Shown here piece by piece: positions 10,496-29,086 of a stretch of DNA of 64,000 nt (position 1 is the first letter of the stretch; every line of letters begins with the position of its first letter). The stretch is from Escherichia coli (GTDB taxonomy: Bacteria > Pseudomonadota > Gammaproteobacteria > Enterobacterales > Enterobacteriaceae). Location: the NCBI RefSeq assembly GCF_030013595.1, contig NZ_CP122768.1; one strand, given 5' to 3'. Both the position numbers and the translations under genes were made by a program. Under the pieces are notes generated by a model. The model did no database searches. It had not been told where the DNA came from and worked only from the letters and a program-made list of their open reading frames with translations.

Positions 10496-11635
10496 TTAGT
10501 ACAGAGAGTGGGTGTTACGTTCAATATCTTCTTTGGTGATACGACCGAACATTTTCCAGTAACACCAGGCGGTGTAGAGCAGAATGATCGGTACCAGAAC
10601 CACCGCAACCCAAGTCATGACGTTAAGTGTCAGCTGGCTGGAAGTTGCATCCCACATTGTCAGACTTGCGTTCATCATGGTGCTGGACGGCATCACAAAC
10701 GGGAACATTGCGATACCGGCAGTCAGGATGATGCAGGCCAGCGTCAGGGAGGAGAACACAAACGCCCACGCGGCTTTATCCATACGTGCAGTCAGGATGG
10801 TCAGCAGCGGCAGAACCACACCCAGTGCCGGAATAGCCCACAGAATTGGCGTGTTGTTGAAGTTAACCAGCCATGCGCCAGCTTCACGAACCACTTCTTT
10901 ATTCAGCGGGTTAGAGGCTGCGTAATGGTCCATTGTCGATTTCACGACATAACCATCGATACCGTACATCACCCATACGCCAGCCAGTGCGAAACAGACC
11001 AGTGTCACCAGTGCCGCCACCTGAGCCGTTGCACGGGTACGCAGGTGCAGTTCGCCCACGGTACGCATTTGCAGATAGGTTGCGCCCTGAGTAATGATCA
11101 TCCCTACGCTCACCACGCCTGCCAGCAGGCCGAACGGGTTAAGCAGCTGGAAGAAGTTACCGGTGTAGTACAGACGCAGATATTCATCAACGTTGAACGG
11201 TACGCCCTGCAACAGGTTACCGAACGCTACACCAATCACCAACGGCGGAACGAAGCTACCAATGAAGATGCCCCAGTCCCACATGTTACGCCAGCGGGTT
11301 TCTTCAATCTTGGAGCGGTAGTCAAAACCGACCGGACGGAAGAACAAAGACGCCAGCACGAGGATCATCGCCACATAGAAGCCGGAGAACGCAGCGGCAT
11401 AGACCATCGGCCAGGCAGCAAAGAGTGCGCCGCCTGCGGTGATCAGCCAAACCTGGTTACCGTCCCAGTGTGGTGCGATGGAGTTAATCATAATTCGACG
11501 CTCGGTGTCGTTACGACCGAGGAAACGGGTGAGCATGCCCACCCCCATGTCGAAACCGTCAGTGACTGCAAAACCAATCAGCAGAACGCCAACCAGCAGC
11601 CACCAGATAAAACGCAATACTTCATAATCGATCAT
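10496..11635 (-). CDS. cydB: cytochrome bd-I ubiquinol oxidase subunit II
   Basis: 379-aa polytopic ORF matching CydB. Confidence 0.96.
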   Translation of the reverse strand: MIDYEVLRFIWWLLVGVLLIGFAVTDGFDMGVGMLTRFLGRNDTERRIMINSIAPHWDGNQVWLITAGGALFAAWPMVYAAAFSGFYVAMILVLASLFFRPVGFDYRSKIEETRWRNMWDWGIFIGSFVPPLVIGVAFGNLLQGVPFNVDEYLRLYYTGNFFQLLNPFGLLAGVVSVGMIITQGATYLQMRTVGELHLRTRATAQVAALVTLVCFALAGVWVMYGIDGYVVKSTMDHYAASNPLNKEVVREAGAWLVNFNNTPILWAIPALGVVLPLLTILTARMDKAAWAFVFSSLTLACIILTAGIAMFPFVMPSSTMMNASLTMWDATSSQLTLNVMTWVAVVLVPIILLYTAWCYWKMFGRITKEDIERNTHSLY

Positions 11636-11650
11636 TTGACGACTCCTGTC

Positions 11651-13219
11651 TTAGCGTGCCGGCTGAGTAGTCGTGGAAGACTGCTCAAAGTGATAGCGAC
11701 CGGTTTTCAGGCTGCTTGGGCCGAGGCGTGCAAACTTGAACATTAAGAACAATTCTGCCACCAGGAACAGGGTATACAGGCCGCAAATCAGCACCATTGA
11801 GAAGATGAGATCGCCTGCGGTCAGTGACGAGTTCGCCACAGCTGTCGGCAGCACTTCACCGATAGCCCACGGTTGGCGGCCATATTCAGCCACAAACCAG
11901 CCCGCTTCTACAGCAATCCACGGCAGCGGAATACCGTACAGCGCGGCGCGCAGCAGCCATTTTTTCTCGCCAATGCGGTTGCGGATGACACTCCAGAAAG
12001 AGAGCGCGATGATTGCCAGCAGCAGGAAGCCACACGCCACCATGATACGGAACGCGAAGTACAGCGGCGCTACACGCGGAATGGAGTCTTTGGTTGCCTG
12101 TTGAATCTGCGCTTCAGTCGCATCAGCCACGTTTGGCGTATAGCGTTTCAGCAGCAGACCGTAACCGAGGTCTTTCTTCATGCTATTGAACTGGTCACGA
12201 ACCGCCTGGTCGGTAGAACCAGAACGCAGTTGCTCGAGCAGAGAGTACGCCTTCATCCCGTTACGAATGCGTTCTTCATGCTGCACCATCAGTTCTTTCA
12301 GGCCGATAACTGGAGTATCCACGGAACGCGTTGCAATGATACCCAGCGCGTAAGGGATCTGGATCGCAAATTTGTTCGTCTCCTCTTCCTGATCAGGAAT
12401 GCCGAACAGAGTAAAGGCAGCAGGCGCAGGTTGCGTTTCCCACTCGGCTTCAATAGCAGCCAGTTTGGTTTTCTGCACGTCGCCCATTTCGTAACCAGAT
12501 TCATCACCCAGAACAATAACAGACAGAACGGCAGCCATACCGAAGCTGGCAGCGATAGCAAAGGAGCGTTTAGCGAAGGCGAAGTCACGACCTTTCAGCA
12601 TATACCATGCGCTGATACCGAGGATGAACATCGCGCCAGTCACATAACCAGACGCTACAGTGTGAACGAATTTCACCTGAGCAACCGGGTTAAGCACCAG
12701 CTCGGAGAAGCTCACCATCTCCATACGCATAGTTTCAAAGTTGAAATCAGACGCGATTGGGTTTTGCATCCAGCCGTTCGCAACCAGAATCCACAGTGCG
12801 GACAGGTTTGAACCGAGCGCCACCAGCCAGGTGACACACATATGCTGAACTTTACCCAGACGATCCCAACCGAAGAAGAACAGACCTACAAAGGTGGATT
12901 CGAGGAAGAAGGCCATTAGACCTTCGATTGCCAGCGGCGCACCGAAGATATCCCCTACATAGTGGGAATAGTAAGACCAGTTAGTCCCGAACTGGAACTC
13001 CATGGTCAGACCGGTAGCCACACCCAGAGCGAAGTTGATACCAAACAACTTGCCCCAGAACTTGGTCATATCTTTATAAATCTGTTTGCCGGAAAGGACG
13101 TAGACCGTTTCCATAATGGCCAGCAGGAACGCCATACCGAGCGTCAGTGGCACAAAAAGGAAGTGGTACATCGCGGTCAAGGCAAACTGTAAGCGCGACA
13201 GTTCGACTATATCTAACAT
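11651..13219 (-). CDS. cydA: cytochrome bd-I ubiquinol oxidase subunit I
   Basis: 522 aa from the second Met ([12 protein letters not shown]...); Q-loop region present. Confidence 0.96.
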
Positions 13220-13556
13220 CATGACTCCTTGCTCATCGCATGAAGACTCCGAGAGTGAACCCCGTTAGAAAGGGTCACACGCATGCCCCAATACAAAATT
13301 ATTTGCTCGCCTCTATCGTTGCCATTTCATCAAAAGAGGAAAAGACAATGATAAAAAAGTTACAAATATGTTAATGAATAAACCAAATTGATCCCGTAAT
13401 TATATTACGCCGCAAAATCCTTACAATAAACAGGTTTTTATTGAGCAAATTTGCATTTTTCGACAGTGATCAATTTATAGCGAAATTGTCACGATCTCAC
13501 CAATTTGATCTACGACAATTTATCGTGTTTTGCAGATTTTTTTCAAGAATTAAAAA

Positions 13557-13570
13557 TTGATTTATATCAA
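13557..13570. promoter_or_regulatory. FNR-consensus palindrome TTGAT-N4-ATCAA in the cydA upstream region
   Basis: perfect match to the FNR half-site palindrome about 340 bp upstream of the cydA start; cydAB is known to be FNR/ArcA regulated. Confidence 0.55.
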
Positions 13571-14024
13571 AATCAACCAAATATGTTAATTATGTATAAA
13601 CCATAGATCATTGGTAATTTTATTGTTAATTTATTGTGAAATATTTATGCAACACAATTATTACAATGAAAAAGTATAGATAAAAAACCAGTGTTTTATT
13701 TAACAGAACCGCCCTATCCACTTTTTATAATACCAATTGATTAGAGTAGCCAATTTGTTGCTATTTTACATAACATATTTTTATCAAAGTTAATTGATTG
13801 TTGCCTTTATGAGCACCGGCCGTAAGCCCGTTATGTTATTGTTTCATTAGTAATAATCACTTAAATGTATCGATGAAACAGGTATGACTTAGCGGGAGTG
13901 ATTGTTTCTGAGTGAACAGAGACCACTTTCGCCTGATAAATGAAAAATGAGCGATTTTTGCAAGTTAGTTTTTCTATAGCCGAGTACGCTCAGCGCCTCG
14001 CTTGATTACAATGAGGTTGCTGCT

Positions 14025-14969
14025 ATGAGTCCTGATAATATCAGTTCTGCTGTCAATCGCTTCTCAGGTTGGCCATCTAATGATCCTCTAAAAACAGATA
14101 AAGAATCAATGACATCACCCATGACTGTGCAGGTAATAAAGATGATTGCCGCCATCCTTGACCCACATCGGATAGTCGTTGGAATCGATACACTTTATAC
14201 AACGCAGCGCGAAACATTTACCTCAGAGAGTCAACAGCTCATTGAATCAGCATTGCAAACACTTCATGTGATGAATTTAAATAACCTGGAAACAAATCTC
14301 GATGAGGAAGGTCACTATCTGGCTTTTGGATATAACGTTGACACTCCTGACAGAATAACCGTTTCTGCTTATAATGAAAAAAAGCCTGGCTGCTATGGCC
14401 AATGTCTTTTAATACAGGATGACGAAACAGACTTATTTAACCTGATAAAAGTTAAAATTTTTGAAGCCAGGCATAATTATGTCGCTCAATTGATGAGCGA
14501 TCCGGAATTTATGTTCAAATTTAGTTATAGCGCTCAACAAAATAGATTAGAACCTCATCTTCTGGTTCCCACTTATTTCCCTCTAAAAACAAACGAACCG
14601 GTTACGCAAGAGGATGTACTGTTACTTTATCGTTTCTTTAAAATGGATGGTGATTTTAATATATTAACATCAGATGAATACATGAGTATCATGACACCTC
14701 TAATGAAGTGTGAGCGTAGCATCCACGACCACAACAGGTATGTGACGGGCAAAGATCCCCTTCTTCTGGACTATCCTCCTTCTGGTAACCAGATATATTT
14801 CCATATTTTTCCTGACGAATCAGCAACACTAGTCCTTTATTTTTCAAACAATGACATTGAATGTTTCGTCTTTGAAAGAGATATTCCGAGCCAGTATCGC
14901 TTTTTCAAAATGTTTACCAATCTGGCACTGGTTATTGATCAGTTAACCGATGCCAATCAAATACTTTAA
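14025..14969 (+). CDS. hypothetical protein, 314 aa, low GC, no recognisable domain
   Basis: clean ORF with a GAGG Shine-Dalgarno 8 nt upstream; polar Ser/Pro-rich N-terminus; no signal peptide or TM segment; AT-rich codon usage unlike flanking core genes. Confidence 0.7.
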   Translation: MSPDNISSAVNRFSGWPSNDPLKTDKESMTSPMTVQVIKMIAAILDPHRIVVGIDTLYTTQRETFTSESQQLIESALQTLHVMNLNNLETNLDEEGHYLAFGYNVDTPDRITVSAYNEKKPGCYGQCLLIQDDETDLFNLIKVKIFEARHNYVAQLMSDPEFMFKFSYSAQQNRLEPHLLVPTYFPLKTNEPVTQEDVLLLYRFFKMDGDFNILTSDEYMSIMTPLMKCERSIHDHNRYVTGKDPLLLDYPPSGNQIYFHIFPDESATLVLYFSNNDIECFVFERDIPSQYRFFKMFTNLALVIDQLTDANQIL

Positions 14970-15049
14970 TTTTTATATATTCCCTGTGGCAAATATTGCT
15001 AAACAATGCCCGGGGATTAATTTTTATTACTCACGGAAAGATTTAAATA

Positions 15050-15472
15050 ATGATCCCATCTCAAATCTCTTTCAACACCCTTCCTGTCAATGCAACATAC
15101 GCTTCAGAGACAACAGTTGACACACAAAAATTCTCTGACATCCTCTACTCAGCGGGGTGTTCCCTAAAGGATCTGGCTTATCTGAGCAGATGTCTGGCAT
15201 CAATACATCCGACTATCGCCAAAAACATTTATGAAACAGAAAATCTCAGCGATCAAAAATTACTACATATTGATTGCCGTAGTACAAATGAAATCAAGAT
15301 AAATATCTTTTTTGGTCAACAACGAGAAGGATTAATTGAAATTAGTTCTGACACAGTCATTTTTTCGATACTGTCTTCATTGATTGACTCCACCATTTCT
15401 AAATTTCAACACCAAAACCCCGTTAACGGTTCTGTAAATCCTGACCTATTGTATGAGGATTATACTGATTAA
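15050..15472 (+). CDS. hypothetical small acidic protein, 140 aa, low GC
   Basis: ORF 80 bp downstream of the 314-aa gene on the same strand; acidic composition, no TM; no family recognised. Confidence 0.6.
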   Translation: MIPSQISFNTLPVNATYASETTVDTQKFSDILYSAGCSLKDLAYLSRCLASIHPTIAKNIYETENLSDQKLLHIDCRSTNEIKINIFFGQQREGLIEISSDTVIFSILSSLIDSTISKFQHQNPVNGSVNPDLLYEDYTD

Positions 15473-16019
15473 ATCCCTCCTGTCGCGAAAAATGGCCTGC
15501 GTTATTGCCAGACGTAATAAAACTTTTGATTAACGTTTCTCGTACTGGTAGCACCTTCATGTACTTTTCTTTTTTACGAAAAATCAAAAGAGCTAACAAA
15601 GGTCATAATTCGCATGAATCATTAATTATTTGTTATTTTCAACATTATTTTTACATTAAGCAGAGATGAATTGCAGTGAAATTCGACTTAATTTTTATGA
15701 AATGCATTTACTCATGGCTAAAGCCACGTCACAAAAATGCAAATTAGAAGTTGATCACAATTATCTCAATACATCAAATCAAGTTAATTTTAAAAATTTA
15801 ACATTCATGACACTAGTTGACATAACACACTGAATTAAAATGAGAATTTGGAAACACACTTTAAACAATCATTTCCCGAAAGACATTTTGAAAATAGATC
15901 AATTGCAACATTACGGTCAGATAAAGACACTCCTGTGATATTAAACCTGTGCCGTTATGAACGGCCATAAATACGACGTGTGTAACTTATTTTACTCTCT
16001 GTCTTACAAAGGATTACCC

Positions 16020-16469
16020 ATGAAGAAAGCAACACTTGTGATTGGCGTTATTGGCGCGGACTGCCATGCAGTAGGCAATAAAGTTCTGGACCGCGTTTTT
16101 AGCAACCATGGCTTCAGAGTCATTAATCTGGGCGTAATGGTCAGCCAGGACGAATATATTGATGCTGCCATTGAAACTGGCGCTGACGCGATTGTCGTCT
16201 CCTCTATCTATGGGCATGGCGATATCGACTGTCTGGGCATGCGCGAACGCTGCATCGAGCGTGGACTGGGTGACATCCTGCTCTATGTGGGCGGTAACCT
16301 GGTGGTCGGAAAACATGACTTCGCTGACGTGGAAACCAAATTTAAAGAGATGGGATTTGATCGCGTCTTTGCCCCAAGTCATGACTTAGAAGATGTTTGT
16401 CAGCTGATGGCCCACGATATCAACCAACGTCATGACGTTGATACTCGCATTCTTGAAGAGGCAATCTGA
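16020..16469 (+). CDS. glmS: glutamate mutase sigma (S) subunit, cobalamin-binding
   Basis: start placed at [21 protein letters not shown] after an AAGGA Shine-Dalgarno; the D-x-H-x-x-G B12-binding motif (DCHAVG) is present; similar to clostridial MutS/GlmS. Confidence 0.9.
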
Positions 16470-17857
16470 TGCAAATCGTCTCTGTCGATATTGGATCGAC
16501 GTGGACCAAAGCAGCCCTCTTCGCCCGGGAGGGGGACGCGTTAACGTTGGTTAACCACGTACTGACCCCAACCACCACCCATCATCTGGCGAAGGGGTTT
16601 TTCTCCAGCCTGAACCTGGTGTTAAACGTAGATAATGCCCTCCCCCTGTTTAACAGCGGTGAGGTTACATTGAAGTATTCCTCCTCTGCCAAAGGTGGGC
16701 TGGCGGTTGCCGCAATGGGATTGGTGCCTTCTATCACCCTGGAAACCGCGAAAGTAACCGCTCACTCTGCGGGGGCTAAAATTGCGCAATATTACTCCTA
16801 CAAGCTGAACCGCCGTGATATCCAGGCACTGGAAGAAACGCAGCCCGATATTCTCTTGTTCACCGGCGGCACCGACGGCGGAGAAGAAAGCTACGGCCTG
16901 AATAACGCCCGTGTGCTGGCAGAATCCAAACTCGACTGCGCCATTATTTATGCCGGAAACCGGGATATTCAGGACGAAGTGCAGGAGATCCTAGGGCATA
17001 AAGACCTGACCATCGTCGACAACGTTCTGCCCGATCTTGACCATCCGAACCCTTTAGCCGCACGCCAGGCTATCTGCGACATATTCCTTAAACGCATCGT
17101 TAAAGGGAAAGGGCTGGATGTCGTTGTTGATAAAACAGGCGAAGAACCAATGCCGACACCATGGACGGTCTTTGAACTGGTTAAGGCAATCAGTAACGTC
17201 GATCACAGCTGGAAAGAGTTCATGCTGATCGACATGGGCGGCGCAACCACCGATGTCTATTCCGCCTGTGCCAACACGCTCTCGCCCGACACCGTTTTAC
17301 ACGGCGTACCGGAACCCTTCGTGAAACGGACGGTGGAAGGCGATCTGGGAATGCGCGTCTCGGCAATGGTGGTTGGTGAAAGTGCGAAAGAGTTAGTCAA
17401 TGTGAATTTTGCTCAGCAACCCGCACAGCTGGACGCTTTTTATCATTACCTCCGTCATCTAGTCGCTCATCCCGACTACTTACCCGCGAATGCAGAAGAA
17501 AAATATTTCGATACCGTCCTGGCCGGACTGTGTGTGGGTTATGCCACCGAAAGACATGCGGGCACCAAAAAAGAGGTCTGCACCTGCGTCGGCAATGTCG
17601 ATTTACAGATGGGACGTGACCTGACAACCGTGCGTAAAGTCGTCGGATCCGGCGGATGGCTCTCGCGTGCCAGTCAGTTCGATATGCATCACTGGTTGAA
17701 ATACCGCGAGTTAAACGACGACGGTAAACGCATTCTCTTACCGACCGAATTTGAATATTACCGCGATTCCCGGGGGCTATTACCACTGCTGGCAAACGTC
17801 GCCAGAGTCGATCCTCTGGCCGCCGCGCGCACCAGTATTCAATGCTTAACCCTATAA
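16469..17857 (+). CDS. glmL: glutamate mutase-associated protein L (MutL/GlmL, putative reactivase)
   Basis: 462-aa ORF between the S and E subunit genes, as in clostridial glutamate mutase operons. Confidence 0.85.
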   Translation: MQIVSVDIGSTWTKAALFAREGDALTLVNHVLTPTTTHHLAKGFFSSLNLVLNVDNALPLFNSGEVTLKYSSSAKGGLAVAAMGLVPSITLETAKVTAHSAGAKIAQYYSYKLNRRDIQALEETQPDILLFTGGTDGGEESYGLNNARVLAESKLDCAIIYAGNRDIQDEVQEILGHKDLTIVDNVLPDLDHPNPLAARQAICDIFLKRIVKGKGLDVVVDKTGEEPMPTPWTVFELVKAISNVDHSWKEFMLIDMGGATTDVYSACANTLSPDTVLHGVPEPFVKRTVEGDLGMRVSAMVVGESAKELVNVNFAQQPAQLDAFYHYLRHLVAHPDYLPANAEEKYFDTVLAGLCVGYATERHAGTKKEVCTCVGNVDLQMGRDLTTVRKVVGSGGWLSRASQFDMHHWLKYRELNDDGKRILLPTEFEYYRDSRGLLPLLANVARVDPLAAARTSIQCLTL

Positions 17858-17875
17858 CAATTAAGGCTGCAATCA

Positions 17876-19321
17876 ATGGAACTTCGAAATAAGAAATTAA
17901 CCCATGACGAATTCATGACCGAGCGGCAACAGGTACTGAAAACCTGGGAAACCGGCAAGGATGTTGAAAACTTTGAAGATGGCGTTAAATACCAACAAAC
18001 CATTCCTGAGCATAAACGCTTCTCTCTTGCGCTGTTGAAAGCAGACAAGGAAGGTAAAACCCTTAGCCAACCGCGCGCAGGTGTGGCGCTGATGGACGAA
18101 CACATCGAACTACTGAAAACACTACAAGAAGAGTGCGATCTGCTGCCGAGCACTATCGATGCATATACCCGTCTGAATCGGTACGAAGAAGCGGCTGTAG
18201 GGATTAAAAAATCCATCGAAGCCGGAACCTCTAAACTGAACGGTTTGCCGGTAGTTAACCATGGCGTCGCAGCTTGCCGTCGCCTCACCGAAACCCTGCA
18301 AAAACCGCTACAGATCCGCCACGGCACGCCAGATGCGCGTCTGCTGGCTGAAATCTCAATGGCCAGCGGCTTTACCAGTTATGAAGGCGGTGGCATTTCC
18401 TACAACATTCCGTATGCCAAACGCGTAACGCTGGAAAAATCGATCCGCGACTGGCAGTACTGCGACCGTTTAATGGGGATGTATGAAGAACACGGGATCC
18501 GCATCAACCGCGAACCGTTTGGCCCACTAACGGGTACGCTGATCCCGCCGTTTATCTCGCACTCTATCGCGATAATCGAAGGCTTGCTGGCGCTGGAACA
18601 GGGTGTGAAATCTATCACCGTTGGTTATGGACAGGTCGGCAGCCTGACGCAGGATGTTGCGGCGATCCAGTCTCTGCGTGAACTTGCACACGAATATTTT
18701 CAGAGCTATGGCTATACCGACTATGAATTAAGTACCGTGTTTCACCAGTGGATGGGCGGCTTTCCGGAAGACGAATCGAAAGCGTTCGCTATTATCTCCT
18801 GGGGCGCAGCCGTCGCGGGGATGTCTGGTGCCACCAAAGTCATCACCAAAAGTCCGCACGAAGCCTGGGGCATCCCGACTGCCGCTGCCAACATTCAGGG
18901 GCTGAAAGCCTCCCGCCAGATGCTCAACATGGTCAACGAGCAGAAATTCCCGCCGTGCCCTGCGGTTGAACTGGAAATTGAACTGATTAAGAGCGAGGTT
19001 CGCGCGGTACTGAATAAAGTGTTCGAACTGGGTAATGGTGATATTGCGCGCGGTACGGTGCTGGCATTTGAAGCGGGCGTACTGGATGTGCCGTTTGCGC
19101 CAGCCGCCTGCAACGCGGGCAAAATTCTTCCGGTCCGTGACAACACCGGCGCGATACGCGTACTGGAAGCCGGAGCCGTTCCATTGCCAAAAGATATTCT
19201 CGACCTCCACCACGATTACGTTGCTGAACGCGCACGCTTTGAAGGACGCCAACCGACATTCCAGATGGTTGTAGATGACATCAATGCTGTATCCCACAGT
19301 AAATTAATAGGAAGACCATAA
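17876..19321 (+). CDS. glmE: glutamate mutase epsilon (E) subunit
   Basis: 481 aa with strong collinear similarity to clostridial GlmE (e.g. PRAGVALxDEHIELL, REPFGPLTGTL, VFHQWMGGFP). Confidence 0.92.
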   Translation: MELRNKKLTHDEFMTERQQVLKTWETGKDVENFEDGVKYQQTIPEHKRFSLALLKADKEGKTLSQPRAGVALMDEHIELLKTLQEECDLLPSTIDAYTRLNRYEEAAVGIKKSIEAGTSKLNGLPVVNHGVAACRRLTETLQKPLQIRHGTPDARLLAEISMASGFTSYEGGGISYNIPYAKRVTLEKSIRDWQYCDRLMGMYEEHGIRINREPFGPLTGTLIPPFISHSIAIIEGLLALEQGVKSITVGYGQVGSLTQDVAAIQSLRELAHEYFQSYGYTDYELSTVFHQWMGGFPEDESKAFAIISWGAAVAGMSGATKVITKSPHEAWGIPTAAANIQGLKASRQMLNMVNEQKFPPCPAVELEIELIKSEVRAVLNKVFELGNGDIARGTVLAFEAGVLDVPFAPAACNAGKILPVRDNTGAIRVLEAGAVPLPKDILDLHHDYVAERARFEGRQPTFQMVVDDINAVSHSKLIGRP

Positions 19322-20562
19322 TGAAAATAAAACAGGCTCTGTTCACCGCTGGCTACTCCTCATTCTATTTCGATGACCAGCAGGCGATAAAAAACGGAGC
19401 GGGTCATGACGGCTTTTTTTATACCGGGGAGCCAGTAACACAGGGGTTTAACGCCGTACGTCAGGCCGGGGAGTGCGTATCGGTACAGTTGATTCTGGAA
19501 AACGGCGCGGTCGCCGTAGGTGACTGTGCTGCCGTACAGTATTCCGGGGCAGGTGGTCGCGATCCACTGTTCCTCGCAGAGCACTTTATTCCGTTCCTCA
19601 ACGACCATATCAAGCCATTACTGGTAGGCCGCGATGTGGATGCTTTCCTGCCGAATGCCCGTTTCTTCGACAAATTGCGTATTGACGGCAACTTGCTACA
19701 TACCGCCGTGCGCTACGGATTATCACAGGCGCTGCTTGATGCTACCGCGCTGGCAACCGGCCGTCTGAAAACTGAAGTAGTTTGCGATGAATGGCAGTTG
19801 CCACGCGTGGCGGAATCCATTCCATTATTTGGTCAGAGCGGTGACGATCGATATATCGCCGTCGATAAGATGATCCTTAAGGGCATCGACGTGCTGCCCC
19901 ATGCACTGATTAATAACGTCGAAGAGAAACTAGGCTTTAAAGGTGAAAAACTGCGCGAATATGTCCGCTGGCTGTCGGATCGTATTCTGAGCAAGCGCAC
20001 CAGCGCACGCTACCACCCTACCCTGCACATCGATGTATACGGCACTATCGGTCTGATCTTCGATATGGATCCGCTTCGCTGTGCGCAATACATCGCCAGC
20101 CTGGAAAAAGAAGCGCAAGGCCTGCCGCTCTACATTGAAGGGCCGGTCGATGCCGGTAACAAGCCCGATCAAATTCGCCTGCTGACCGCGATTACCAAAG
20201 AGCTGACGCGCCTCGGTTCCGGCGTGAAAATTGTGGCCGATGAATGGTGTAACACCTACCAGGATATTGTTGATTTTACTGATGCCGCCAGTTGCCACAT
20301 GGTGCAAATCAAAACCCCGGATCTGGGCAGTATTCACAACATCGTCGATGCGGTTCTTTACTGCAACAGCCACAGCATGGAAGCGTACCAGGGCGGCACC
20401 TGCAATGAAACTGATGTCAGTGCCTGCACCTGTGTCCACGTCGCCCTTGCCGCTCGCCCTATGCGTATGCTGGTAAAGCCAGGGATGGGCTTTGACGAAG
20501 GCCTCGATATCGTCTTCAACGAAATGAATCGTACTATCGCGCTGTTGCAGGCTAAGGATTAA
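19321..20562 (+). CDS. mal: 3-methylaspartate ammonia-lyase (beta-methylaspartase)
   Basis: 413 aa; enolase-superfamily MAL motifs (AVQYSGAGGRDPLF, HMVQIKTPDLG, KPGMG); overlaps glmE stop (TAATG). Confidence 0.93.
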   Translation: MKIKQALFTAGYSSFYFDDQQAIKNGAGHDGFFYTGEPVTQGFNAVRQAGECVSVQLILENGAVAVGDCAAVQYSGAGGRDPLFLAEHFIPFLNDHIKPLLVGRDVDAFLPNARFFDKLRIDGNLLHTAVRYGLSQALLDATALATGRLKTEVVCDEWQLPRVAESIPLFGQSGDDRYIAVDKMILKGIDVLPHALINNVEEKLGFKGEKLREYVRWLSDRILSKRTSARYHPTLHIDVYGTIGLIFDMDPLRCAQYIASLEKEAQGLPLYIEGPVDAGNKPDQIRLLTAITKELTRLGSGVKIVADEWCNTYQDIVDFTDAASCHMVQIKTPDLGSIHNIVDAVLYCNSHSMEAYQGGTCNETDVSACTCVHVALAARPMRMLVKPGMGFDEGLDIVFNEMNRTIALLQAKD

Positions 20563-20565
20563 CAA

Positions 20566-21936
20566 ATGGCTCGTTCTTTTAAAGTCTTATCGCCAACGGC
20601 AATCCTCGGGTATGGATTCCCGGAAGAGAGCTTCCGTAAAGCGATGGCAGAATCGCCCGATCTGATCGCCGTTGATGCAGGCTCTTCCGATCCTGGCCCC
20701 CACTACCTCGGGGCGGGCAAACCGTTTACCGATCGCGCAGGGGTCAAGCGCGATCTGCGCTATATGATCACCGCAGGCGTGCAAAATAATATACCGGTGG
20801 TGATCGGAACGGCTGGCGGTTCTGGTGCCGCACCACACCTGGAGTGGTGCCGAGAAATAATTCATGAGATTGCCCGGGAAGAGCACCTCTCGTTCTCGAT
20901 GGCGTTGATCCCGGCAGACGTTGACAAAGCCATCGTCCACCAGGCGCTGGATAACGGCAAAATCACGGCGCTGGATTTTGTCCCGCCGTTAACCCACGAC
21001 GCGATTGACGAAAGTACGTATATCGTCGCGCAAATGGGCATCGAACCCTTCCAGCAGGCGCTGAAAGAAGGCGCGCAAGTGGTGCTGGGCGGGCGCGCTT
21101 ACGACCCGGCCTGCTTTGCTGCGCTACCGATCATGCAAGGCTTTGATGAAGGTCTGGCGCTGCATTGTGGGAAAATCCTTGAATGCGCGGCAATCGCCGC
21201 AACGCCCGGCTCAGGCTCTGACTGGGCGATGGGCATCATTGATGACAACGGCTTTACGCTGAAGACATTTAATCCGAAGCGTAAATTTACCGAAACGTCA
21301 GCGGCTGCACACACACTGTATGAGAAATCCGATCCCTACTTCCTGCCAGGACCTGGCGGCGTGTTGAACCTGAAAGACTGCACATTTAAAGCGGTCAATG
21401 ACGGCGAAGTGTACGTCAGCGGTTCTAAGCATGAAGAAACGCCGTATGCCCTGAAACTGGAAGGTGCGCGACGAGTGGGCTTCCGCTGTCTGACCATCGC
21501 AGGAACGCGCGACCCGATCATGATCGCCGGGATCGATAAAATCATCGATGAAGTCAAAACCAGCGTTTCGCGTAACCTGTCGCTCGACGATGACAGCATT
21601 CACATCAATTTCCACCTGTACGGCAAAAACGGGGTGATGGGCGACCATGAACCGATGCAAACTGCCGGGCATGAGCTGGGGATTGTCCTTGATGTAGTTG
21701 CACCGACCCAGGAAATTGCCAATAGCGTTTGCTCGCTGGTGCGCTCTACCATGCTGCACTACGGCTATGAAAACCGCATCGCTACCGCAGGCAATCTGGC
21801 GTTCCCGTTCTCCCCTTCTGATATCCAGGGCGGGCCGGTATACGAATTTTCCATATATCACCTGATTGAAGCCAACGACGCTCTGCGTTTTGATTTCCAT
21901 ATTGAACAGGTGACGCCAGAAGGAGTTCAGGCATGA
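20566..21936 (+). CDS. DUF1446 (AtuA-like) family protein, function unknown
   Basis: 456-aa soluble ORF; family assignment from remembered N-terminal pattern, not verified. Confidence 0.6.
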   Translation: MARSFKVLSPTAILGYGFPEESFRKAMAESPDLIAVDAGSSDPGPHYLGAGKPFTDRAGVKRDLRYMITAGVQNNIPVVIGTAGGSGAAPHLEWCREIIHEIAREEHLSFSMALIPADVDKAIVHQALDNGKITALDFVPPLTHDAIDESTYIVAQMGIEPFQQALKEGAQVVLGGRAYDPACFAALPIMQGFDEGLALHCGKILECAAIAATPGSGSDWAMGIIDDNGFTLKTFNPKRKFTETSAAAHTLYEKSDPYFLPGPGGVLNLKDCTFKAVNDGEVYVSGSKHEETPYALKLEGARRVGFRCLTIAGTRDPIMIAGIDKIIDEVKTSVSRNLSLDDDSIHINFHLYGKNGVMGDHEPMQTAGHELGIVLDVVAPTQEIANSVCSLVRSTMLHYGYENRIATAGNLAFPFSPSDIQGGPVYEFSIYHLIEANDALRFDFHIEQVTPEGVQA

Positions 21937-22250
21937 AACAGTCAATTGTCTCACTGGCGCAAGTCATTCGTTCGAAAAATGCCGGACCTTACGAACTGGT
22001 TTTAGATATTTTATTTAAAACCAAAGAAAACTATGAGCGTGTCAAATCATCAGGGCAATTAACCCCAGAACTGATCGCGCGCTTATATCATGTTGAACCT
22101 GACTTTATTCATCGTATTGTCTGGTTTGATCCTTCTAACGCAGTAAAAATCGTCATGCCACGAGATATTATCTCCGGGAATGTAGGTGACAATGATGTCT
22201 ATGGTGCACAGCAACATGCACCTTTATTAAATATGAGTTTCGATTTGTAA
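21933..22250 (+). CDS. DUF4387-like small protein, function unknown
   Basis: 105-aa ORF translationally coupled (ATGA overlap) to the DUF1446-like gene; remembered SKNAGP and YGAQQH motifs. Confidence 0.55.
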   Translation: MKQSIVSLAQVIRSKNAGPYELVLDILFKTKENYERVKSSGQLTPELIARLYHVEPDFIHRIVWFDPSNAVKIVMPRDIISGNVGDNDVYGAQQHAPLLNMSFDL

Positions 22251-22333
22251 AAATCCGAATACTTTTAGCCAACTGACATCCCGTCACTTATTGCAGTTCA
22301 ACACTTCAGCTATTTGTAAGGTTGTAATAGCAG

Positions 22334-22375
22334 GTAGATGCCTGAATCTCTATTCAGGCATCTACTTCTCCTGAT
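22334..22375 (+). terminator. intrinsic terminator or attenuator hairpin (14-bp perfect stem GTAGATGCCTGAAT / ATTCAGGCATCTAC)
   Basis: perfect inverted repeat with CTCT loop followed by a T-rich tract, between the DUF4387-like gene and the transporter. Confidence 0.6.
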
Positions 22376-22410
22376 TCTGATTTATCGCCGCGCACCTGAT
22401 GGAGGAAAAA

Positions 22411-23691
22411 ATGAAGAAAATAAGTTTAACCACGATGATTCTTTTGGCGCTGGTACTTGGAATGATTATCGGCGTAGTGCTCAATAACACTGCTTCACCG
22501 GAAACCGCAAAACTCTATGCGCAAGAAATATCGATATTCACGACGATTTTCTTACGACTGATAAAAATGATTATCGCTCCGTTAGTGGTCTCTACCCTGG
22601 TGGTAGGTATAGCTAAAATGGGCGATGCCAAAGCCCTTGGTCGTATTTTTTCTAAAACACTCTTTTTATTTATTTGCGCCTCATTGCTGTCAATTGCCTT
22701 AGGCTTGATAACAGTAAATTTCTTCATGCCAGGCACAGGAATTAATTTTGTTGCACACGGAGCCGAAACCACCGGAGTGGTCGCGTCAGAACCCTTTACG
22801 CTAAAAGTATTTATTTCGCATGCTTTCCCCACCAGCATTGTCGATGCCATGGCGCACAATGAAATTTTGCAAATCGTGGTGTTCTCAATTTTCCTCGGCT
22901 GTAGCCTGACGGCGATTGGCGAGAAAGCCAGCGCCATCGTTCACGCCTTAGATTCGCTGGCACATGCCATGTTAAAGCTCACTGGCTACGTCATGCTCTT
23001 CGCTCCCCTGACCGTATTCGCTGCTATTTCAGCATTGATTGCTGAACGAGGACTGGCAGTTATGGTGAGCGCCGGGATCTTTATGGGTGAATTTTATTTC
23101 ACCATGTTATTACTTTGGGTGCTGCTTATCGGTCTGGCCATCGTTTATGTTGGCCCCTGCATCAGACGCCTGACCCGCGCCCTTTCGGAACCCGCCCTGC
23201 TGGCATTTACCACATCCAGTTCTGAAGCGGCTTTTCCAGGAACGCTTGAAAAACTGGAGCAATTTGGCGTTTCCCCCAAAATTGCCAGCTTTGTCTTACC
23301 CATTGGCTACTCATTTAATCTCGTTGGATCAATGGCCTACTGCTCCTTCGCCACAGTTTTCATCGCCCAGGCCTGCAATATCCATTTATCCATCGGTGAG
23401 CAAATCACCATGCTGTTGATCCTGATGTTGACCTCGAAAGGAATGGCTGGCGTACCACGCGCCTCAATGGTGGTTATCGCCGCCACGCTCAACCAGTTCA
23501 ATATTCCGGAAGCGGGGCTGATCTTGCTGATGGGCGTTGATCCGTTCCTTGATATGGGGCGTTCCGCGACAAACGTCATGAGCAACGCAATGGGCGCTGC
23601 GATGGTGAGTCGGTGGGAAGGCGAACATTTCGGCGAGGGCTGTCGGGGTAAAGCATTAAAACCCAATGAATCGAACGTTGCTCTGCCCTGA
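22411..23691 (+). CDS. dicarboxylate/amino acid:cation symporter (DAACS family, GltP/DctA-like)
   Basis: about 426-aa polytopic membrane ORF; start chosen at MKKISL after a GGAGG Shine-Dalgarno; substrate unknown. Confidence 0.8.
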   Translation: MKKISLTTMILLALVLGMIIGVVLNNTASPETAKLYAQEISIFTTIFLRLIKMIIAPLVVSTLVVGIAKMGDAKALGRIFSKTLFLFICASLLSIALGLITVNFFMPGTGINFVAHGAETTGVVASEPFTLKVFISHAFPTSIVDAMAHNEILQIVVFSIFLGCSLTAIGEKASAIVHALDSLAHAMLKLTGYVMLFAPLTVFAAISALIAERGLAVMVSAGIFMGEFYFTMLLLWVLLIGLAIVYVGPCIRRLTRALSEPALLAFTTSSSEAAFPGTLEKLEQFGVSPKIASFVLPIGYSFNLVGSMAYCSFATVFIAQACNIHLSIGEQITMLLILMLTSKGMAGVPRASMVVIAATLNQFNIPEAGLILLMGVDPFLDMGRSATNVMSNAMGAAMVSRWEGEHFGEGCRGKALKPNESNVALP

Positions 23692-23798
23692 GGGGGATCT
23701 TAAGCAATCAGAAGCCAATGACTACGCATTTTTATAAGCCGGATCATGAAGTTAGACGGCAATTAAGTAACACTAACGTTTAAGGTGAAAAGTGAAAT

Positions 23799-25451
23799 AT
23801 GTCAAAACCATTTATCTGGCAAGAACCGTTTCTACAAAATAAAGACGGTACAGAATATACATTAATTAGCGATCAGCATATTACAGTAACGGAATTAGAC
23901 GGCGAAGAAGTGATAAAAATCGCTCCTGAAGCATTAACGCTGCTTGCCCGGCAGGCATTTTATGAAGCCTCTTTTTTCTTACGTTCCGCTCATTTGCAAC
24001 AGGTCGCCAGCATTCTTAACGATCCGCAGGCCAGTAGTAATGATAAATACGTTGCGTTGCAGTTATTACGTAATGCTGAAGTCTCAGCAAAAGGGGTATT
24101 ACCCAACTGTCAGGATACCGGCACCGCAACTATTGTTGCCAGTAAAGGGCAACAGATATGGACGGGAGGTAACGACGCTGAAGCCTTAAGCAAAGGCATT
24201 TACAGTACTTTCCAGGAAAATAATCTGCGCTTTTCACAAAATGCGCCGCTGGATATGTATACCGAAGTCAATACGCAAACCAATCTCCCGGCGCAGATTG
24301 ATATCAGCGCTGTCGCTGGTAATGAGTACCATTTTCTCTGTGTTAATAAAGGGGGCGGCTCCGCCAATAAAGCCGCACTTTATCAGGAAACCAAATCCTT
24401 ATTGCAACCAGAAAAACTGACCGCATTTTTAATCGAAAAAATGAAATCGCTGGGCACCGCTGCCTGCCCGCCTTACCACATCGCCTTTGTCGTCGGAGGG
24501 CTTTCAGCCGATCAAACCTTAAAAGTTGCCAAGCTGGCCTCAACGAAATATTACGACAATTTGCCCACCAGCGGAAACGAGCAAGGACAAGCATTCCGTG
24601 ATATTGAGCTGGAAAAAGTGTTGCTCGAGGCCAGTCAGCAATTTGGTATTGGTGCGCAATTTGGAGGTAAATATTTCGCTCATGATATTCGCGTCATTCG
24701 TCTGCCGCGTCACGGTGGCTCCTGCCCGATAGCTATGGCGCTCTCCTGTTCTGCCGATCGCAATATCAAAGCAAAAATTAACAAGCACGGTATCTGGCTG
24801 GAAAAACTCGAACACAATCCGGGGCAATATATTCCAGCCTCACTGCGGGAAGAAAATCACGCGCAACATGTACAGCTGGATCTAAACCGTCCGTTGCGTG
24901 ACGTGATGCAGGATCTCGCCAGATTACCGGTAGGTACCCGCGTGTCGTTAAGTGGTCCCATCGTAGTGGCGCGCGATATCGCCCACGCCAAAATAAAAGC
25001 GCGGCTGGATAGCGGCGAACCGATGCCGGATTACCTGAAGCATCATATTGTCTATTACGCTGGCCCGGCGAAAACACCGGAGAACATGGCCTGCGGTTCA
25101 CTAGGTCCAACCACGGGCGGTCGAATGGACGGTTATGTCGATACCTTCCAGGCTGCTGGCGGCAGTCTGGTAATGTTATCGAAAGGTAACCGCAGCCAGC
25201 AGGTCACCGATGCCTGTCACAAACATGGCGGCTTCAATCTGGGAAGTATTGGCGGTGCAGCTGCGTTACTGGCGCAAGAATATGTCAAAAGTCTGCGTTG
25301 CCTGGAATACCCGGAGCTGGGTATGGAAGCGGTGTGGATGATGGAAGTGGAAAATCTGCCCGCATTCATCCTGGTAGATGATAAAGGCAATAATTTCTTT
25401 AGTCAGTTTGAGCAGCAACACCGCTGCGCCAGTTGCCCTGCGGGACATTAA
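23799..25451 (+). CDS. fumD: class I (Fe-S) fumarate hydratase paralogue, mesaconase/fumarase FumD-type
   Basis: 550 aa, FumA/FumB-like; clustered with glutamate mutase and mal as described for FumD of E. coli O157:H7. Confidence 0.85.
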
Positions 25452-25460
25452 GGAAAATGA

Positions 25461-26063
25461 ATGGAAGCGCGAATTTCAACTGAACGGCATGTGCAGCGCC
25501 AGCAGAAATTGAAGGAACAGGTCGATACGCGCATCGCGGCGGCGATAGAGAAAAAAGGGATTTTGATTGTTTTCACCGGCAATGGCAAAGGGAAATCCAC
25601 TGCCGCGTTTGGTACTGTGACGCGCGCGGTGGGTCATGGCAAAACGGTGGGGGTTGCGCAGTACATCAAGGGGCAATGGGACAACGGCGAATACAACCTT
25701 CTCCAGCCGCTGGGGGTTGAGTTTCATATTATGGGAACCGGTTTTACCTGGGAGACACAGAACCGGCAAGCGGATATCGACGCGGCGAAAGAGGTCTGGT
25801 CGGAAAGCAAACGGATGCTGGCTGACAAGCGTTACGACTTAGTGGTGCTTGATGAGCTGACCTATATGCTGGCTTACCATTATCTGGATACCGAAGAAGT
25901 GATCGCTTCTCTGCAAAACCGCCCGGCACAACAAAGTGTCATTGTCACCGGACGCGGTTGCCACAGTCAGATATTAAAAATGGCGGATACGGTCAGCGAA
26001 ATCCGCCCCGTCAAACATGCTTTTGATAACGGCATTCAGGCCCAGCCGGGTATCGACTGGTAA
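25461..26063 (+). CDS. cob(I)alamin adenosyltransferase (BtuR/CobA paralogue)
   Basis: 200 aa with P-loop GNGKGKSTAAFG and collinear similarity to BtuR; would supply adenosylcobalamin to glutamate mutase. Confidence 0.88.
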   Translation: MEARISTERHVQRQQKLKEQVDTRIAAAIEKKGILIVFTGNGKGKSTAAFGTVTRAVGHGKTVGVAQYIKGQWDNGEYNLLQPLGVEFHIMGTGFTWETQNRQADIDAAKEVWSESKRMLADKRYDLVVLDELTYMLAYHYLDTEEVIASLQNRPAQQSVIVTGRGCHSQILKMADTVSEIRPVKHAFDNGIQAQPGIDW

Positions 26064-26066
26064 TAA

Positions 26067-26098
26067 CTGCGCCTGGCATCCCGCCAGGCGCAGGTTTT
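26067..26098. terminator. bidirectional terminator hairpin between convergent genes
   Basis: 11-bp inverted repeat CTGCGCCTGGC / GCCAGGCGCAG followed by GTTTT. Confidence 0.6.
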
Positions 26099-27002
26099 AC
26101 ATCTCCTGCGGTACAACCGATTTCGCCAGCAACCATTCACGAAATTGCTGCAAGTGCGGTGAGTCAGACTTCTCTTCCTGCCACGTCATAATAAAACGAT
26201 TACCGGTACGAATAGGCACATCACAGGGGATCACCATATCGCCACTATCCAAATCATGTTGAATAGCGAACCGTGGTAACAGCGCCACGCCGAGATTCGA
26301 GCGCACGGCGGCAATCAGCATTGAAAGCAAATCGAAACGTGGTCCGTTGTTGACCAGCGGACTGCTAACGCCAGATAAGGCAAACCACTCTTCCCAGCCA
26401 GTAATACGGGTACTTTGATGCAGAAGTGGTAACTCTGTAAGCAGTTCTGCCACTGACAGTTTTTGATCGGACATTGCAAGCAAACTGCCGCTGCATACCG
26501 GCAAAATCTCCTCATAAAAGAGATATTCTACTTCCGCCCAGGGCGCGCAAAAATTTTCGCGCATAATGACAGCATCGTACTCCCGATTAAGAAAATCGCC
26601 GTTATTAGCTAAAGAGTGAATATTAACAATAATATCGGGATGTAACTTTGTGAATTCATGTAAATTTGGGATTAACCAGTGAGTACTAAACGTAGGATTA
26701 ACGGCAAGTTCAATAACCTGAACCGTAGGCTGCCAGGTCATAATGGTATTGGTATCGCGTTCCAGCTTATTTAATGTTTCTTTTACTATCCCCAGGTAAT
26801 ACTTCCCTGCATCATTAAGAAAAATGCGTTTTTTAGAGTGTGAAAATAACGGAGTATGTAAAAATTCCTCCAGCGCACTTACTTGTCTGAATACAGCACT
26901 TTGGGTTAACGCTAACTCCTCTGCCGCTCTGGTATAGCTTTCATGACGTGCGACGACCTCAAAAGTCACCAGCTGCTCCGTTTTAGGTATTTTTCCTCGC
27001 AT
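26097..27002 (-). CDS. LysR-family transcriptional regulator
   Basis: N-terminal HTH (TFEVVARHESYTRAAEELALTQSAVFRQVSALEE) and LysR substrate-binding domain; start chosen at MRGKIP; divergent from the RtcB-like gene. Confidence 0.85.
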   Translation of the reverse strand: MRGKIPKTEQLVTFEVVARHESYTRAAEELALTQSAVFRQVSALEEFLHTPLFSHSKKRIFLNDAGKYYLGIVKETLNKLERDTNTIMTWQPTVQVIELAVNPTFSTHWLIPNLHEFTKLHPDIIVNIHSLANNGDFLNREYDAVIMRENFCAPWAEVEYLFYEEILPVCSGSLLAMSDQKLSVAELLTELPLLHQSTRITGWEEWFALSGVSSPLVNNGPRFDLLSMLIAAVRSNLGVALLPRFAIQHDLDSGDMVIPCDVPIRTGNRFIMTWQEEKSDSPHLQQFREWLLAKSVVPQEM

Positions 27003-27591
27003 AATGCCGTCCGTGAAAAAATAACAATTCAAAAATTATTTTATAAAAAACAGTAGCACTAATGAATATCATAATTCAAATAAACAAACCAGTCAGCTAT
27101 ATGTCTAACCAGGAAAATAAAGTGACAATAATCCTAAAACAGGAATTTCACCTCAGTTATCCGCATGCAATACTTTAAAGCTATTATTGCAAGAATATTA
27201 TTCATATACATGAATATACTCTAAATAAGTCAAGTTGCAGGAAGGGAACAAATAATGAATTTCCAGAAGCTTACATAAGTAAGTGACCTGGGTGAGCGAA
27301 CATCGATGCAGCACATGCAACTTGAATTATGACAAGTATACAATGATAAATTTATATACCCTATGTTATATATTATCTATGTCCGGTTAAATTGAATGAG
27401 TCATGGCCTTAAAAGACTTCACAAAAGATAATTCCTCTTTAACAATAAGCCAGATTTACCACTTGTAAAACTTGCTATCGCCACATACACTACGCGCGTT
27501 TTCTTTCCCTTTTGCTGGCTGCTGACCGGAAAGACAAAATTACCCTCGCAATACAGGGGGTTGTTTAACGTCTATATTTCAGGACAGCGTT

Positions 27592-28989
27592 ATGCATCAT
27601 CTTTCAAGGCTTGATAAAGCCTTTCTGCGCAAAGGGATCCAACTTTCCCGCGCCAACAATATTGTTTCATTATCTCGTCCATCAGGTGCCAGTGCCCGCG
27701 TACTGCTGCCGGACGAACTGCCGCTGGAAGAAAAAGCAGTAACACAACTGCTTGATTTTGCAGAAGTGAAGCTACCAGACCACCCAGGTTATGTGCGCCA
27801 GACGTGCGCGACGCCAGATTTTCATCCCGGCAATGGAGTCCCCGTTGGCGCGGTGGTGGCCTCAACGCCGGATTTAGTCATTCCCGCCGCCATCGGCACC
27901 GATATTTCTTGTGGCATGCGGCTGCTGACGACCGGATTAACACTTGAGCAAGCCGAAGCGCATAAAGACGTCATCGCTCAGCGGTTAACGCAAGTGCTAC
28001 TGCAAAATGAGCGCGATGTTCCGTTATCCGCACAGGCGTTCACCGCGCTTTTTGATGGCGGACCGGCAGATTGCGTGTCGACCTTGCCATCAGCAGGTCT
28101 CTGGACACGCACGAATATCCCCCGAATGGTACAAGAGATTGACCGCTGCATTGGGCTTAACGAGCATAACAGTCATTCGCGTTATGCCCCACCCGCCCTG
28201 CTGGCAACGGACCGCGCATTACTCCGCGATCCTTGTCTGGGTACGCCGGGTTCAGGTAATCATTTTATTGAACTTCAGGTCGTTGATAGCGTGGTTGATC
28301 GCCATGTAGCCTGGCAACAAGGGCTGAAAACAGGCGATATTGTGGTGATGATCCACAGTGGATCGCGAGATGTTGGCTTTTACGTCGGAAGACGCTGGAT
28401 GGATCGCGCCCGTGCTGAATGGCCCACCGGACATAAACATCCACAAAGCGGGTTATATGGTCTGGCAGGCGGACTGGCGGAGGAATATCTACAAGCGATA
28501 GGAATGGCGGCGCGTTACGCGTGGTTAAATCGCGTCACAATTGCCGAAATGGTGCGCGTATGTCTCGCCAATCTCTTTCATCAGGACAATTCGCATCTGG
28601 TGGTGGATGTGCCGCATAACATCATCCTTCGCGAGCATGAAATGAATATTCATCGCAAAGGTGCAACACCGGCACGAGTGGGCGATCTGGCATTAATCCC
28701 CGGTTCAATGGGCGATTATTCGTGGCTTGCAGTCGGTTGCGGCAACCCGGAGTGGCTGTGGTCATGCAGTCACGGAGCAGGACGCAGCCAGCGTCGACAG
28801 GCCATGCGCTCAAGCGCGACTGAAGAGTCAACGCTGCCGTGGCAATGCGTCACATTGCGTGAAGAACGACGTCTTGAAGAAGCGCCAGCGGCTTATAAAG
28901 ATATTGGTCCGGTTATCGAAGCCCAACAAGAAGCCGGATTAATTCAGCCAGCGGTCAGATTTCGACCGTGGTTAACGTTTAAGGCATAA
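27592..28989 (+). CDS. RtcB-family RNA 3'-phosphate ligase paralogue with N-terminal extension
   Basis: 465 aa; RtcB motifs PDFHPGNG, IPAAIGTDISCGM, GSGNHFIEL, MIHSGSRDVG, HN, IPGSMG, CSHGAGR, AYKDI; no rtcA/rtcR nearby. Confidence 0.85.
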   Translation: MHHLSRLDKAFLRKGIQLSRANNIVSLSRPSGASARVLLPDELPLEEKAVTQLLDFAEVKLPDHPGYVRQTCATPDFHPGNGVPVGAVVASTPDLVIPAAIGTDISCGMRLLTTGLTLEQAEAHKDVIAQRLTQVLLQNERDVPLSAQAFTALFDGGPADCVSTLPSAGLWTRTNIPRMVQEIDRCIGLNEHNSHSRYAPPALLATDRALLRDPCLGTPGSGNHFIELQVVDSVVDRHVAWQQGLKTGDIVVMIHSGSRDVGFYVGRRWMDRARAEWPTGHKHPQSGLYGLAGGLAEEYLQAIGMAARYAWLNRVTIAEMVRVCLANLFHQDNSHLVVDVPHNIILREHEMNIHRKGATPARVGDLALIPGSMGDYSWLAVGCGNPEWLWSCSHGAGRSQRRQAMRSSATEESTLPWQCVTLREERRLEEAPAAYKDIGPVIEAQQEAGLIQPAVRFRPWLTFKA

Positions 28990-29086
28990 AAAAGGCCATC
29001 ATACGATGGCCAACCATGTCGAAACCGACAGCCCTTCGCCATTCCTGTAGAGGGAAGCGGCGAGGGCTATTTCTTATTACAGATAT
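28990..29086 (-). ncRNA. sdhX: SdhX (RybD)-type 3'UTR-derived sRNA region with intrinsic terminator
   Basis: position immediately 3' of sucD with terminator GGCCATCGTATGATGGCC-TTTT on the minus strand; assignment by position and memory of SdhX, exact ends uncertain. Confidence 0.5.

Follow-up and report, generated by a model that had tools for sequence, protein, structure and literature searches.

The cydAB control region of this Escherichia coli locus is probably the genus-wide one, and that of K-12 the diverged outlier

Positions 13223–13860 of the window (the whole 64-kb stretch of DNA that was analysed) are best read, with a probability of about 0.7, as the complete and vertically inherited cydABX control region of the genus Escherichia. 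The mismatch with K-12 would then have arisen on the K-12 side. The K-12 control region would be a swapped-in, strongly diverged outlier, and that of the window the normal one found throughout the genus. E. coli relies on cytochrome bd-I for respiration at low oxygen, and the cydAB promoter serves as a standard system for studying how FNR, ArcA and H-NS act together. To our knowledge, K-12 was used throughout this model work. The window-type control region was found in ~42% of complete E. coli genomes, including O157:H7, EAEC 042 and B2 ExPEC, and is ~28% diverged from that of K-12. K-12 site coordinates and regulatory models should be checked before they are applied to such strains. The two cyd alleles were not found described in the literature searched. 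The coordinates of the features are given in Table 1.

Table 1. Features upstream of cydA and in the adjoining DNA (positions in the window)
Feature	Coordinates	Strand	Remarks
cydA, cytochrome bd-I subunit I	11651–13222	minus	RefSeq start 13219; the ORF finder adds one ATG, giving 13222
Near-invariant 71 nt immediately 5' of the cydA ATG	13223–13293	minus	same sequence in K-12; near-invariant in seven Escherichia loci
Probable genus-typical cydAB control region	13294–13860	minus	left edge, breakpoint against K-12; right edge, common to all other locus types with this allele
Proximal predicted ArcA box, AAGTTACAAATATGTTAA	13357–13374	plus	20 bits; position of the K-12 cydA3 site
Promoter-like site TTGTAA-16-TATAAT (predicted)	13399–13426	minus	10/12 matches; within a 38-nt block identical in both alleles
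FNR site 2 (predicted), TTGATCTACGACAA	13505–13518	no strand	at -1.5, overlapping the P1 -10 element and start; 52 bp from FNR site 1
P1-like core promoter TTGAAA-18-TAAATT	13517–13546	minus	predicted -35/-10 pair
FNR site 1 (predicted), perfect palindrome TTGATTTATATCAA	13557–13570	no strand	-53.5 of P1; K-12 counterpart TTGATAAATATCAA
Middle predicted ArcA cluster	13583–13640	plus	boxes 13583–13600 (16 bits), 13612–13629 (17 bits) and 13623–13640 (about 20.5–20.7 bits); K-12 cydA2 site
Invariant 32-nt block, TATAGATAAAAAACCAGTGTTTTATTTAACAG	13675–13706	no strand	invariant in seven Escherichia loci; conserved in Citrobacter; unrecognisable in K-12 (nhmmer)
Distal invariant block	13767–13815	no strand	includes two predicted ArcA boxes; invariant in seven Escherichia loci; positional counterpart of K-12 cydA1
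Distal predicted ArcA box	13770–13787	minus	17.3 bits
Distal predicted ArcA box	13787–13804	plus	14 bits
DNA upstream of hyp314	13861–14024	plus	common only to loci with hyp314
hyp314, 314-aa orphan gene	14025–14969	plus	Escherichia-restricted; divergent from cydA
hyp140, second orphan ORF	15050–15472	plus
Methylaspartate (glutamate fermentation) cluster and neighbours	15729–28983	plus	RtcB last; right edge is the sucD-side junction

Comparison with K-12 and with other species

In K-12 the locus runs cydA, an 846-bp spacer, mngB-mngA-mngR and sucD, so mngB does lie on this side of cydA, as the original prediction had it. From cydB as far as 13293, 72 bp before the cydA ATG, the window and K-12 shared 98.9% identity (22 differences across 11218–13293). 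From 13294, identity fell to ~72% overall (55–94% per 50 bp). The BLAST alignment to K-12 stopped at 13595, with no BLAST-detectable homology beyond, and homology was picked up again only at 28984, ~100 bp beyond the sucD stop codon. The window is thus not collinear with K-12. The breakpoint sought by alignment to the K-12 cydA upstream region was placed at 13294, and collinearity up to ~14000 was absent. Within the diverged part the alignment is a mosaic: K-12 and the window share both predicted FNR sites, the 38-nt block and two predicted ArcA-box regions, and the intervening DNA is saturated with changes. The AT-rich character noted for this DNA was confirmed (32.5% G+C across 13200–13999, against 51–56% within cydAB). 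The cydA-hyp314 spacer of the window is 802 bp long, also with 32.5% G+C, and K-12 likewise has an AT-rich spacer of ~800 bp, with the same near-invariant 71 nt before the ATG of the operon.

Alleles of other species were scanned in one genome per species with a 20-mer common to both alleles. Matches were obtained in E. albertii, E. whittamii, Escherichia sp. E1V33, Escherichia sp. MOD1-EC7003, E. coli E69 and several Citrobacter. The first five all carry the window allele, with 88–98% core identity to the window, and phylogroup B2 E. coli also has a window-type allele. The K-12 allele was only 71–76% identical to every Escherichia and Citrobacter allele sampled. A profile of 13601–13865 (nhmmer) detected the Citrobacter cyd upstream regions with E values of 2e-9 to 4e-3 and did not detect K-12 (E = 1.4). 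In an E. albertii contig, the whole cydA-hyp314 spacer (804 bp) aligned end to end with that of the window (85.3% over 809 columns). The right edge common to all window-type loci is 13860–13865, whatever the neighbour. Together with the presence of the glm (methylaspartate) cluster in other species, the outgroup alleles and the E. albertii spacer indicate that the window has the ancestral Escherichia arrangement. Window-type alleles stray from the species tree, E. albertii being nearer to the window (93.4% core identity) than E. coli E69 (only 92.5%), so that recombination between Escherichia lineages has also shaped the window allele. In Citrobacter, mngB adjoins cydA and the distal ArcA boxes lie at K-12-like offsets; this adjacency of mngB and cydA is therefore old in the family.

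A contig of the 'Citrobacter sp.' MAG HRGM_Genome_0066 (DXKH01000067.1, locus L009) was 98–100% identical to the window over 13373–15394, and another contig of the same MAG (locus L008) has a Citrobacter-type cyd region. The bin probably holds E. coli contamination.

Locus types were counted in complete E. coli genomes with a match, and three types accounted for 5424 of 5425. The K-12-type spacer was present in 3172 genomes (at least 80% of the spacer), with 3175 records matching at 99% identity or more. The type with hyp314 and the cluster, which includes O157:H7, was present in 1138. The remaining 1114 have a TPR gene (ATCC 11775, CFT073, Nissle 1917, NC101, ST131) and are 88–90% identical to the window up to 13860. 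The window-type allele is thus carried by 2252 of the 5424 genomes. Strain 042 matches the window over 13294–14024 with 100% identity. Within E. coli, the K-12-type allele is nearly uniform (at least 99% identity) and the window-type allele spans 88–100%. No allele intermediate between the two was found among the 5425 genomes.

Predicted FNR and ArcA sites in the two alleles

The K-12 cydAB model comprises five promoters, P1 to P5, and three ArcA-P regions (Cotter et al., 1997; Govantes et al., 2000, as cited in PMC3688515 and PMC3798270). In PMC3688515, the FNR sites of cydA P1 are placed at -53.5 and -1.5. The perfect FNR palindrome announced upstream of cydA was found at exactly the position given: TTGATTTATATCAA is the sole match to TTGATNNNNATCAA (perfect TTGAT-N4-ATCAA) in the 64-kb window, where shuffles expect 0.11. 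The 52-bp spacing of the predicted FNR pair matches the -53.5/-1.5 layout of P1, and the pair has the same spacing and the same distance to the ATG in K-12. The N4 spacers of the sites are unlike in the two alleles. From the positions of both FNR sites, the P1 start would lie near 13510. The promoter scan returned the P1-like site and one more promoter-like site, against P1 to P5 in the K-12 model. The latter, at 13399–13426, is a candidate for a cyd promoter located further downstream.

ArcA boxes were predicted with a position weight matrix built from 111 published ArcA boxes, those of cydA being left out (PMC3798270 Table S3). Five boxes of at least 15 bits were found in the window, against 0.06 expected. 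Upstream of the ATG, predicted boxes lie at +135 (20 bits), +361, +390, +401, +427, +548 (minus, 17.3 bits) and +565 bp (14 bits) in the window, at +132, +367, +398, +570 (minus) and +615 bp in K-12, and at +133, +389, ~+572 (minus) and ~+616 bp in Citrobacter. The proximal box lies at +132 to +135 in 14 of 14 loci. The three K-12 ArcA ChIP regions cydA1, cydA2 and cydA3 (PMC3798270) map onto the distal, middle and proximal box clusters, respectively. The DNA surrounding cydA1, the strongest ArcA ChIP site of K-12, has no alignable counterpart in the window.

The distances at which the FNR pair and the ArcA boxes are placed are conserved across the 14 loci. As both alleles keep the predicted three-cluster ArcA layout and the predicted FNR pair, these would predate the split of the alleles. 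With two predicted FNR sites 52 bp apart and three predicted ArcA clusters at corresponding distances in both, the two alleles are probably regulated alike in qualitative terms. Predicted boxes score higher in the window than in K-12 (proximal, 20 against 15 bits; middle, 20.5 against 13 bits), and the distal boxes of the window are ~22 bp nearer to cydA. The response to ArcA is possibly stronger with the window allele than with that of K-12.

If the K-12 model holds for the window, FNR bound at the two sites would repress P1 in the absence of oxygen, and ArcA-P would bind three clusters of direct-repeat boxes ~135, 360–400 and 550–565 bp upstream of the ATG. ArcA-P would thereby counteract H-NS silencing of the AT-rich cyd DNA, giving an expression peak under microaerobic conditions. 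The K-12 cydA spacer is among the H-NS-bound regions according to PMC3946193. The two alleles constitute a natural experiment on a classic promoter, in which the predicted layout of sites is conserved and the intervening DNA has become saturated with changes.

The 71 nt upstream of the cydA ATG showed nothing unusual in RNA folding (z = -0.06), and an Rfam scan of 13100–16100 gave a chance miRNA match alone (E = 0.97). Over 13000–13293, which covers the first 220 nt of cydA and the upstream 71 nt, Escherichia and Citrobacter are 97–99% identical; the adjacent DNA is 72–85% identical.

Genes between cydA and sucD

In this window, variable cargo would begin only past 13860 and would consist of hyp314, hyp140 and the methylaspartate cluster. 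The upstream neighbour of cydA is the divergent hyp314, where K-12 has the 3' end of the co-oriented mngB. Among 5.8 billion sequences, hyp314 is represented by only five protein clusters, each of them Escherichia-like. Neither hyp314 nor hyp140 had a hit above threshold in Pfam, NCBIfam or PADLOC, and the AlphaFold2 model of hyp314 (four-sequence alignment, mean pLDDT 46.6) was too poor for a fold search. An intact hyp314 lies beside cydA in the E. albertii contig (65% amino-acid identity, dN/dS 0.43). In the E. albertii type strain the gene has a frameshift, and in Escherichia sp. MOD1-EC7003 it is disrupted. Two copies of a ~127-bp element with an ERIC/IRU core (AGCTTACATAAGTAAGTGACCTGGGTGAGCGA) interrupt it there (L019 12075–12202 and 12817–12943); the same element lies between the LysR and RtcB genes of the window (27214–27340).

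The glm cluster is located beside cydA in E. whittamii and E1V33, with 89% identity to the window, and is also present in MOD1-EC7003. The DNA that an island view would expect to be absent from sister lineages is thus present in them, the cluster in three Escherichia species and hyp314 in E. albertii. Judged from this distribution, hyp314 and the methylaspartate cluster have long been resident between cydA and sucD in Escherichia, and the description of this DNA as acquired is not borne out. The gene set is that of the cydA-adjacent mesaconate cluster of O157:H7 (Kato and Asano, 1997; Kronen and Berg, 2015, PMC4682846): glmS, glmL, glmE, methylaspartate ammonia-lyase, an AtuA-family gene, DUF4387, a symporter, class I fumarase (FumD in PMC4682846), cobO and a LysR regulator. 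PMC4682846 treats the cluster as a pathogen-associated extra, whereas it appears to be ancestral at the cydA locus in Escherichia. Absence from K-12 alone is a poor ground for calling DNA 'acquired'.

Some E. coli have composite loci with the order cydA-hyp314-hyp140-glm...RtcB-mngB-mngA-mngR-sucD, and the mngB-RtcB junction was found in 134 genomes. The window corresponds to such a locus minus a clean 5.6-kb mngRAB segment at 28984.

Several loci differ in detail. Both mngRAB and the methylaspartate cluster lie between sucD and cydA in loci L021 and L022. In the composite locus of E. coli VE-T9 (NZ_AP027963.1, L024), a deletion caused by an IS1 begins with the DUF4387 gene and takes in part of RtcB. 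At its sucD end the cluster is variable: the RtcB-sucD junction of the window (28780–29180) was found in only 156 genomes, and O157:H7 (L026) is without RtcB, its LysR gene being followed directly by sucD. B2-type loci (cydA-TPR-sucD) retain short 5' remnants of glmS (L003 7099–7167 and L007 11818–11922) matching window 15991–16324, which suggests that they descend from a cluster-bearing ancestor.

The divergent K-12 tract and its possible origins

K-12 was compared with the composite loci. Identity was 97–100% from sucC through mngA and 96% over nt 1–2160 of mngB. K-12 and composite-type mngB differ at 91 of the first 2160 nt and at 92 of the last 474 nt, where dS is 0.885 and dN 0.10. As a yardstick, E. 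coli and E. albertii have a dS of 0.22–0.28 for cydA and cydB and of 0.51 for hyp314. With one edge at mngB nt 2161 and the other at -72 of cydA, K-12 bears a single sharp-edged divergent tract of ~1.25 kb. By its divergence, the tract dates from before E. coli and E. albertii separated.

Most simply, the K-12 state would have arisen by one replacement, in a lineage possessing mngRAB as well as the cluster. The incoming segment of ~1.25 kb, either foreign or very old, would have brought an mngB 3' end, a spacer and a cyd control region of its own, and would have replaced everything between the mngB 3' end and -72 of cydA. Recombination would have taken place within mngB and within the near-invariant stretch that precedes cydA. 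The cluster would have been removed and a diverged control region with an unchanged site layout left behind. That the K-12 region is a xenolog, brought by one exchange of ~1.25 kb that deleted a 15-kb glutamate-fermentation cluster and provided the ancestor of K-12-like lineages, which make up 58% of sequenced E. coli, with a foreign cyd control region whose predicted ArcA boxes are weaker, is a tentative reconstruction and rather doubtful in this full form. If it were true, O157:H7, 042 and B2 ExPEC would tune cytochrome bd-I to oxygen otherwise than K-12. No donor was found, there being no K-12-like allele among the species representatives that have the shared 20-mer. The MngB C-terminus of K-12 is 80–84% identical to other Escherichia variants and ~71% to those of Citrobacter, Salmonella and Enterobacter, with no closer relative outside Escherichia. 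A Citrobacter-like donor was considered; it is weakened by this nearness to Escherichia and was kept only as an 'unsampled deep lineage'.

The fruitless search for a donor among species representatives, the nearness of the K-12 MngB C-terminus to Escherichia variants and the Citrobacter arrangement (mngB adjoining cydA, distal ArcA boxes at the K-12 offsets of ~570 (minus) and ~615 (plus)) would also suit an ancient balanced polymorphism. Both types would then have segregated since before the Escherichia radiation, neither being imported. The MngB C-terminus in particular leaves room for such a long-lived polymorphism. This explanation is nevertheless improbable: the K-12-type allele was absent from all other sampled Escherichia lineages, its near-uniformity contrasts with the 88–100% span of the window type, and the tract has two sharp edges, beyond which divergence is not raised.

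Quite unlikely is the scenario first put forward, in which the lineage of the window acquired an island whose insertion severed or displaced distal cyd regulatory sequence and whose genes may share FNR/ArcA/H-NS control with cydAB. Non-collinearity with K-12 beyond 13595 and the lack of an alignable counterpart of cydA1 speak for it. The distal sequence does differ from that of K-12 as proposed, but the polarity is reversed, K-12 being the outlier. The low G+C content of hyp314 and hyp140 (34–41%) also fits, but the glm cluster has an E. coli-like ~52% and occupies the same place in two other species, and no integrase, transposase or tRNA gene is annotated in the island or at its edges (identical locus). 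A foreign cassette had been said to begin ~450 bp past the FNR site. The first gene absent from K-12, hyp314, is indeed 455 bp away, but 14024 is not a foreign-DNA boundary. Against K-12, divergence starts at 13294 and BLAST ends at 13595; against E. albertii there is no boundary, as the whole spacer aligns. Other Escherichia species also share the allele. hyp314 is divergent from cydA and has predicted ArcA boxes 221–255 bp before its ATG. Shared control is nonetheless not supported: conserved blocks are present up to 13860 next to hyp314, TPR and glm alike, and so would serve cyd, and no plus-strand promoter-like site was found in 13200–14100. The predicted boxes make co-regulation of hyp314 with cyd conceivable, but nothing argues for it.

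Divergence of the K-12 region in place, by relaxed or positive selection and without recombination, would account for the kept motifs among saturated spacers, but it is highly improbable given that ~28% divergence abuts ~1% flanks in steps, that the tract includes coding DNA whose dS and dN indicate long neutral divergence and not local acceleration, and that the 5425 genomes hold no intermediate alleles.

The preferred reading, a genus-wide control region in the window and an outlier in K-12, has a precedent in switched intergenic regions and horizontal regulatory transfer (Oren et al., 2014, as described in PMC5890482). As there, a core operon is served within one species by alternative, highly divergent upstream alleles that recombine in conserved flanks. 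Edges are sharp and lie in conserved DNA (13294 and mngB nt 2161), and the alleles before the same core gene share less than 90% identity (~72% in the core, none detectable distally). Unlike such regions, the cyd tract also includes 474 nt of mngB, it would have come in as a metabolic cluster was lost, and the predicted binding-site layout is kept and not rewired. On these comparisons, the cydA upstream DNA is an ordinary, though instructive, switched regulatory region of a known kind. Its value lies in the warning on K-12-centred reasoning and in the natural pair of alleles.

Two minor observations concern the K-12-type mngB-cydA spacer. Near the mngB stop codon (locus L001 6942–7033) it contains a repeat with ~40 matching places per E. 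coli genome, probably a REP/BIME element. In one genome, LR-31, the spacer carries an IS1A insertion.
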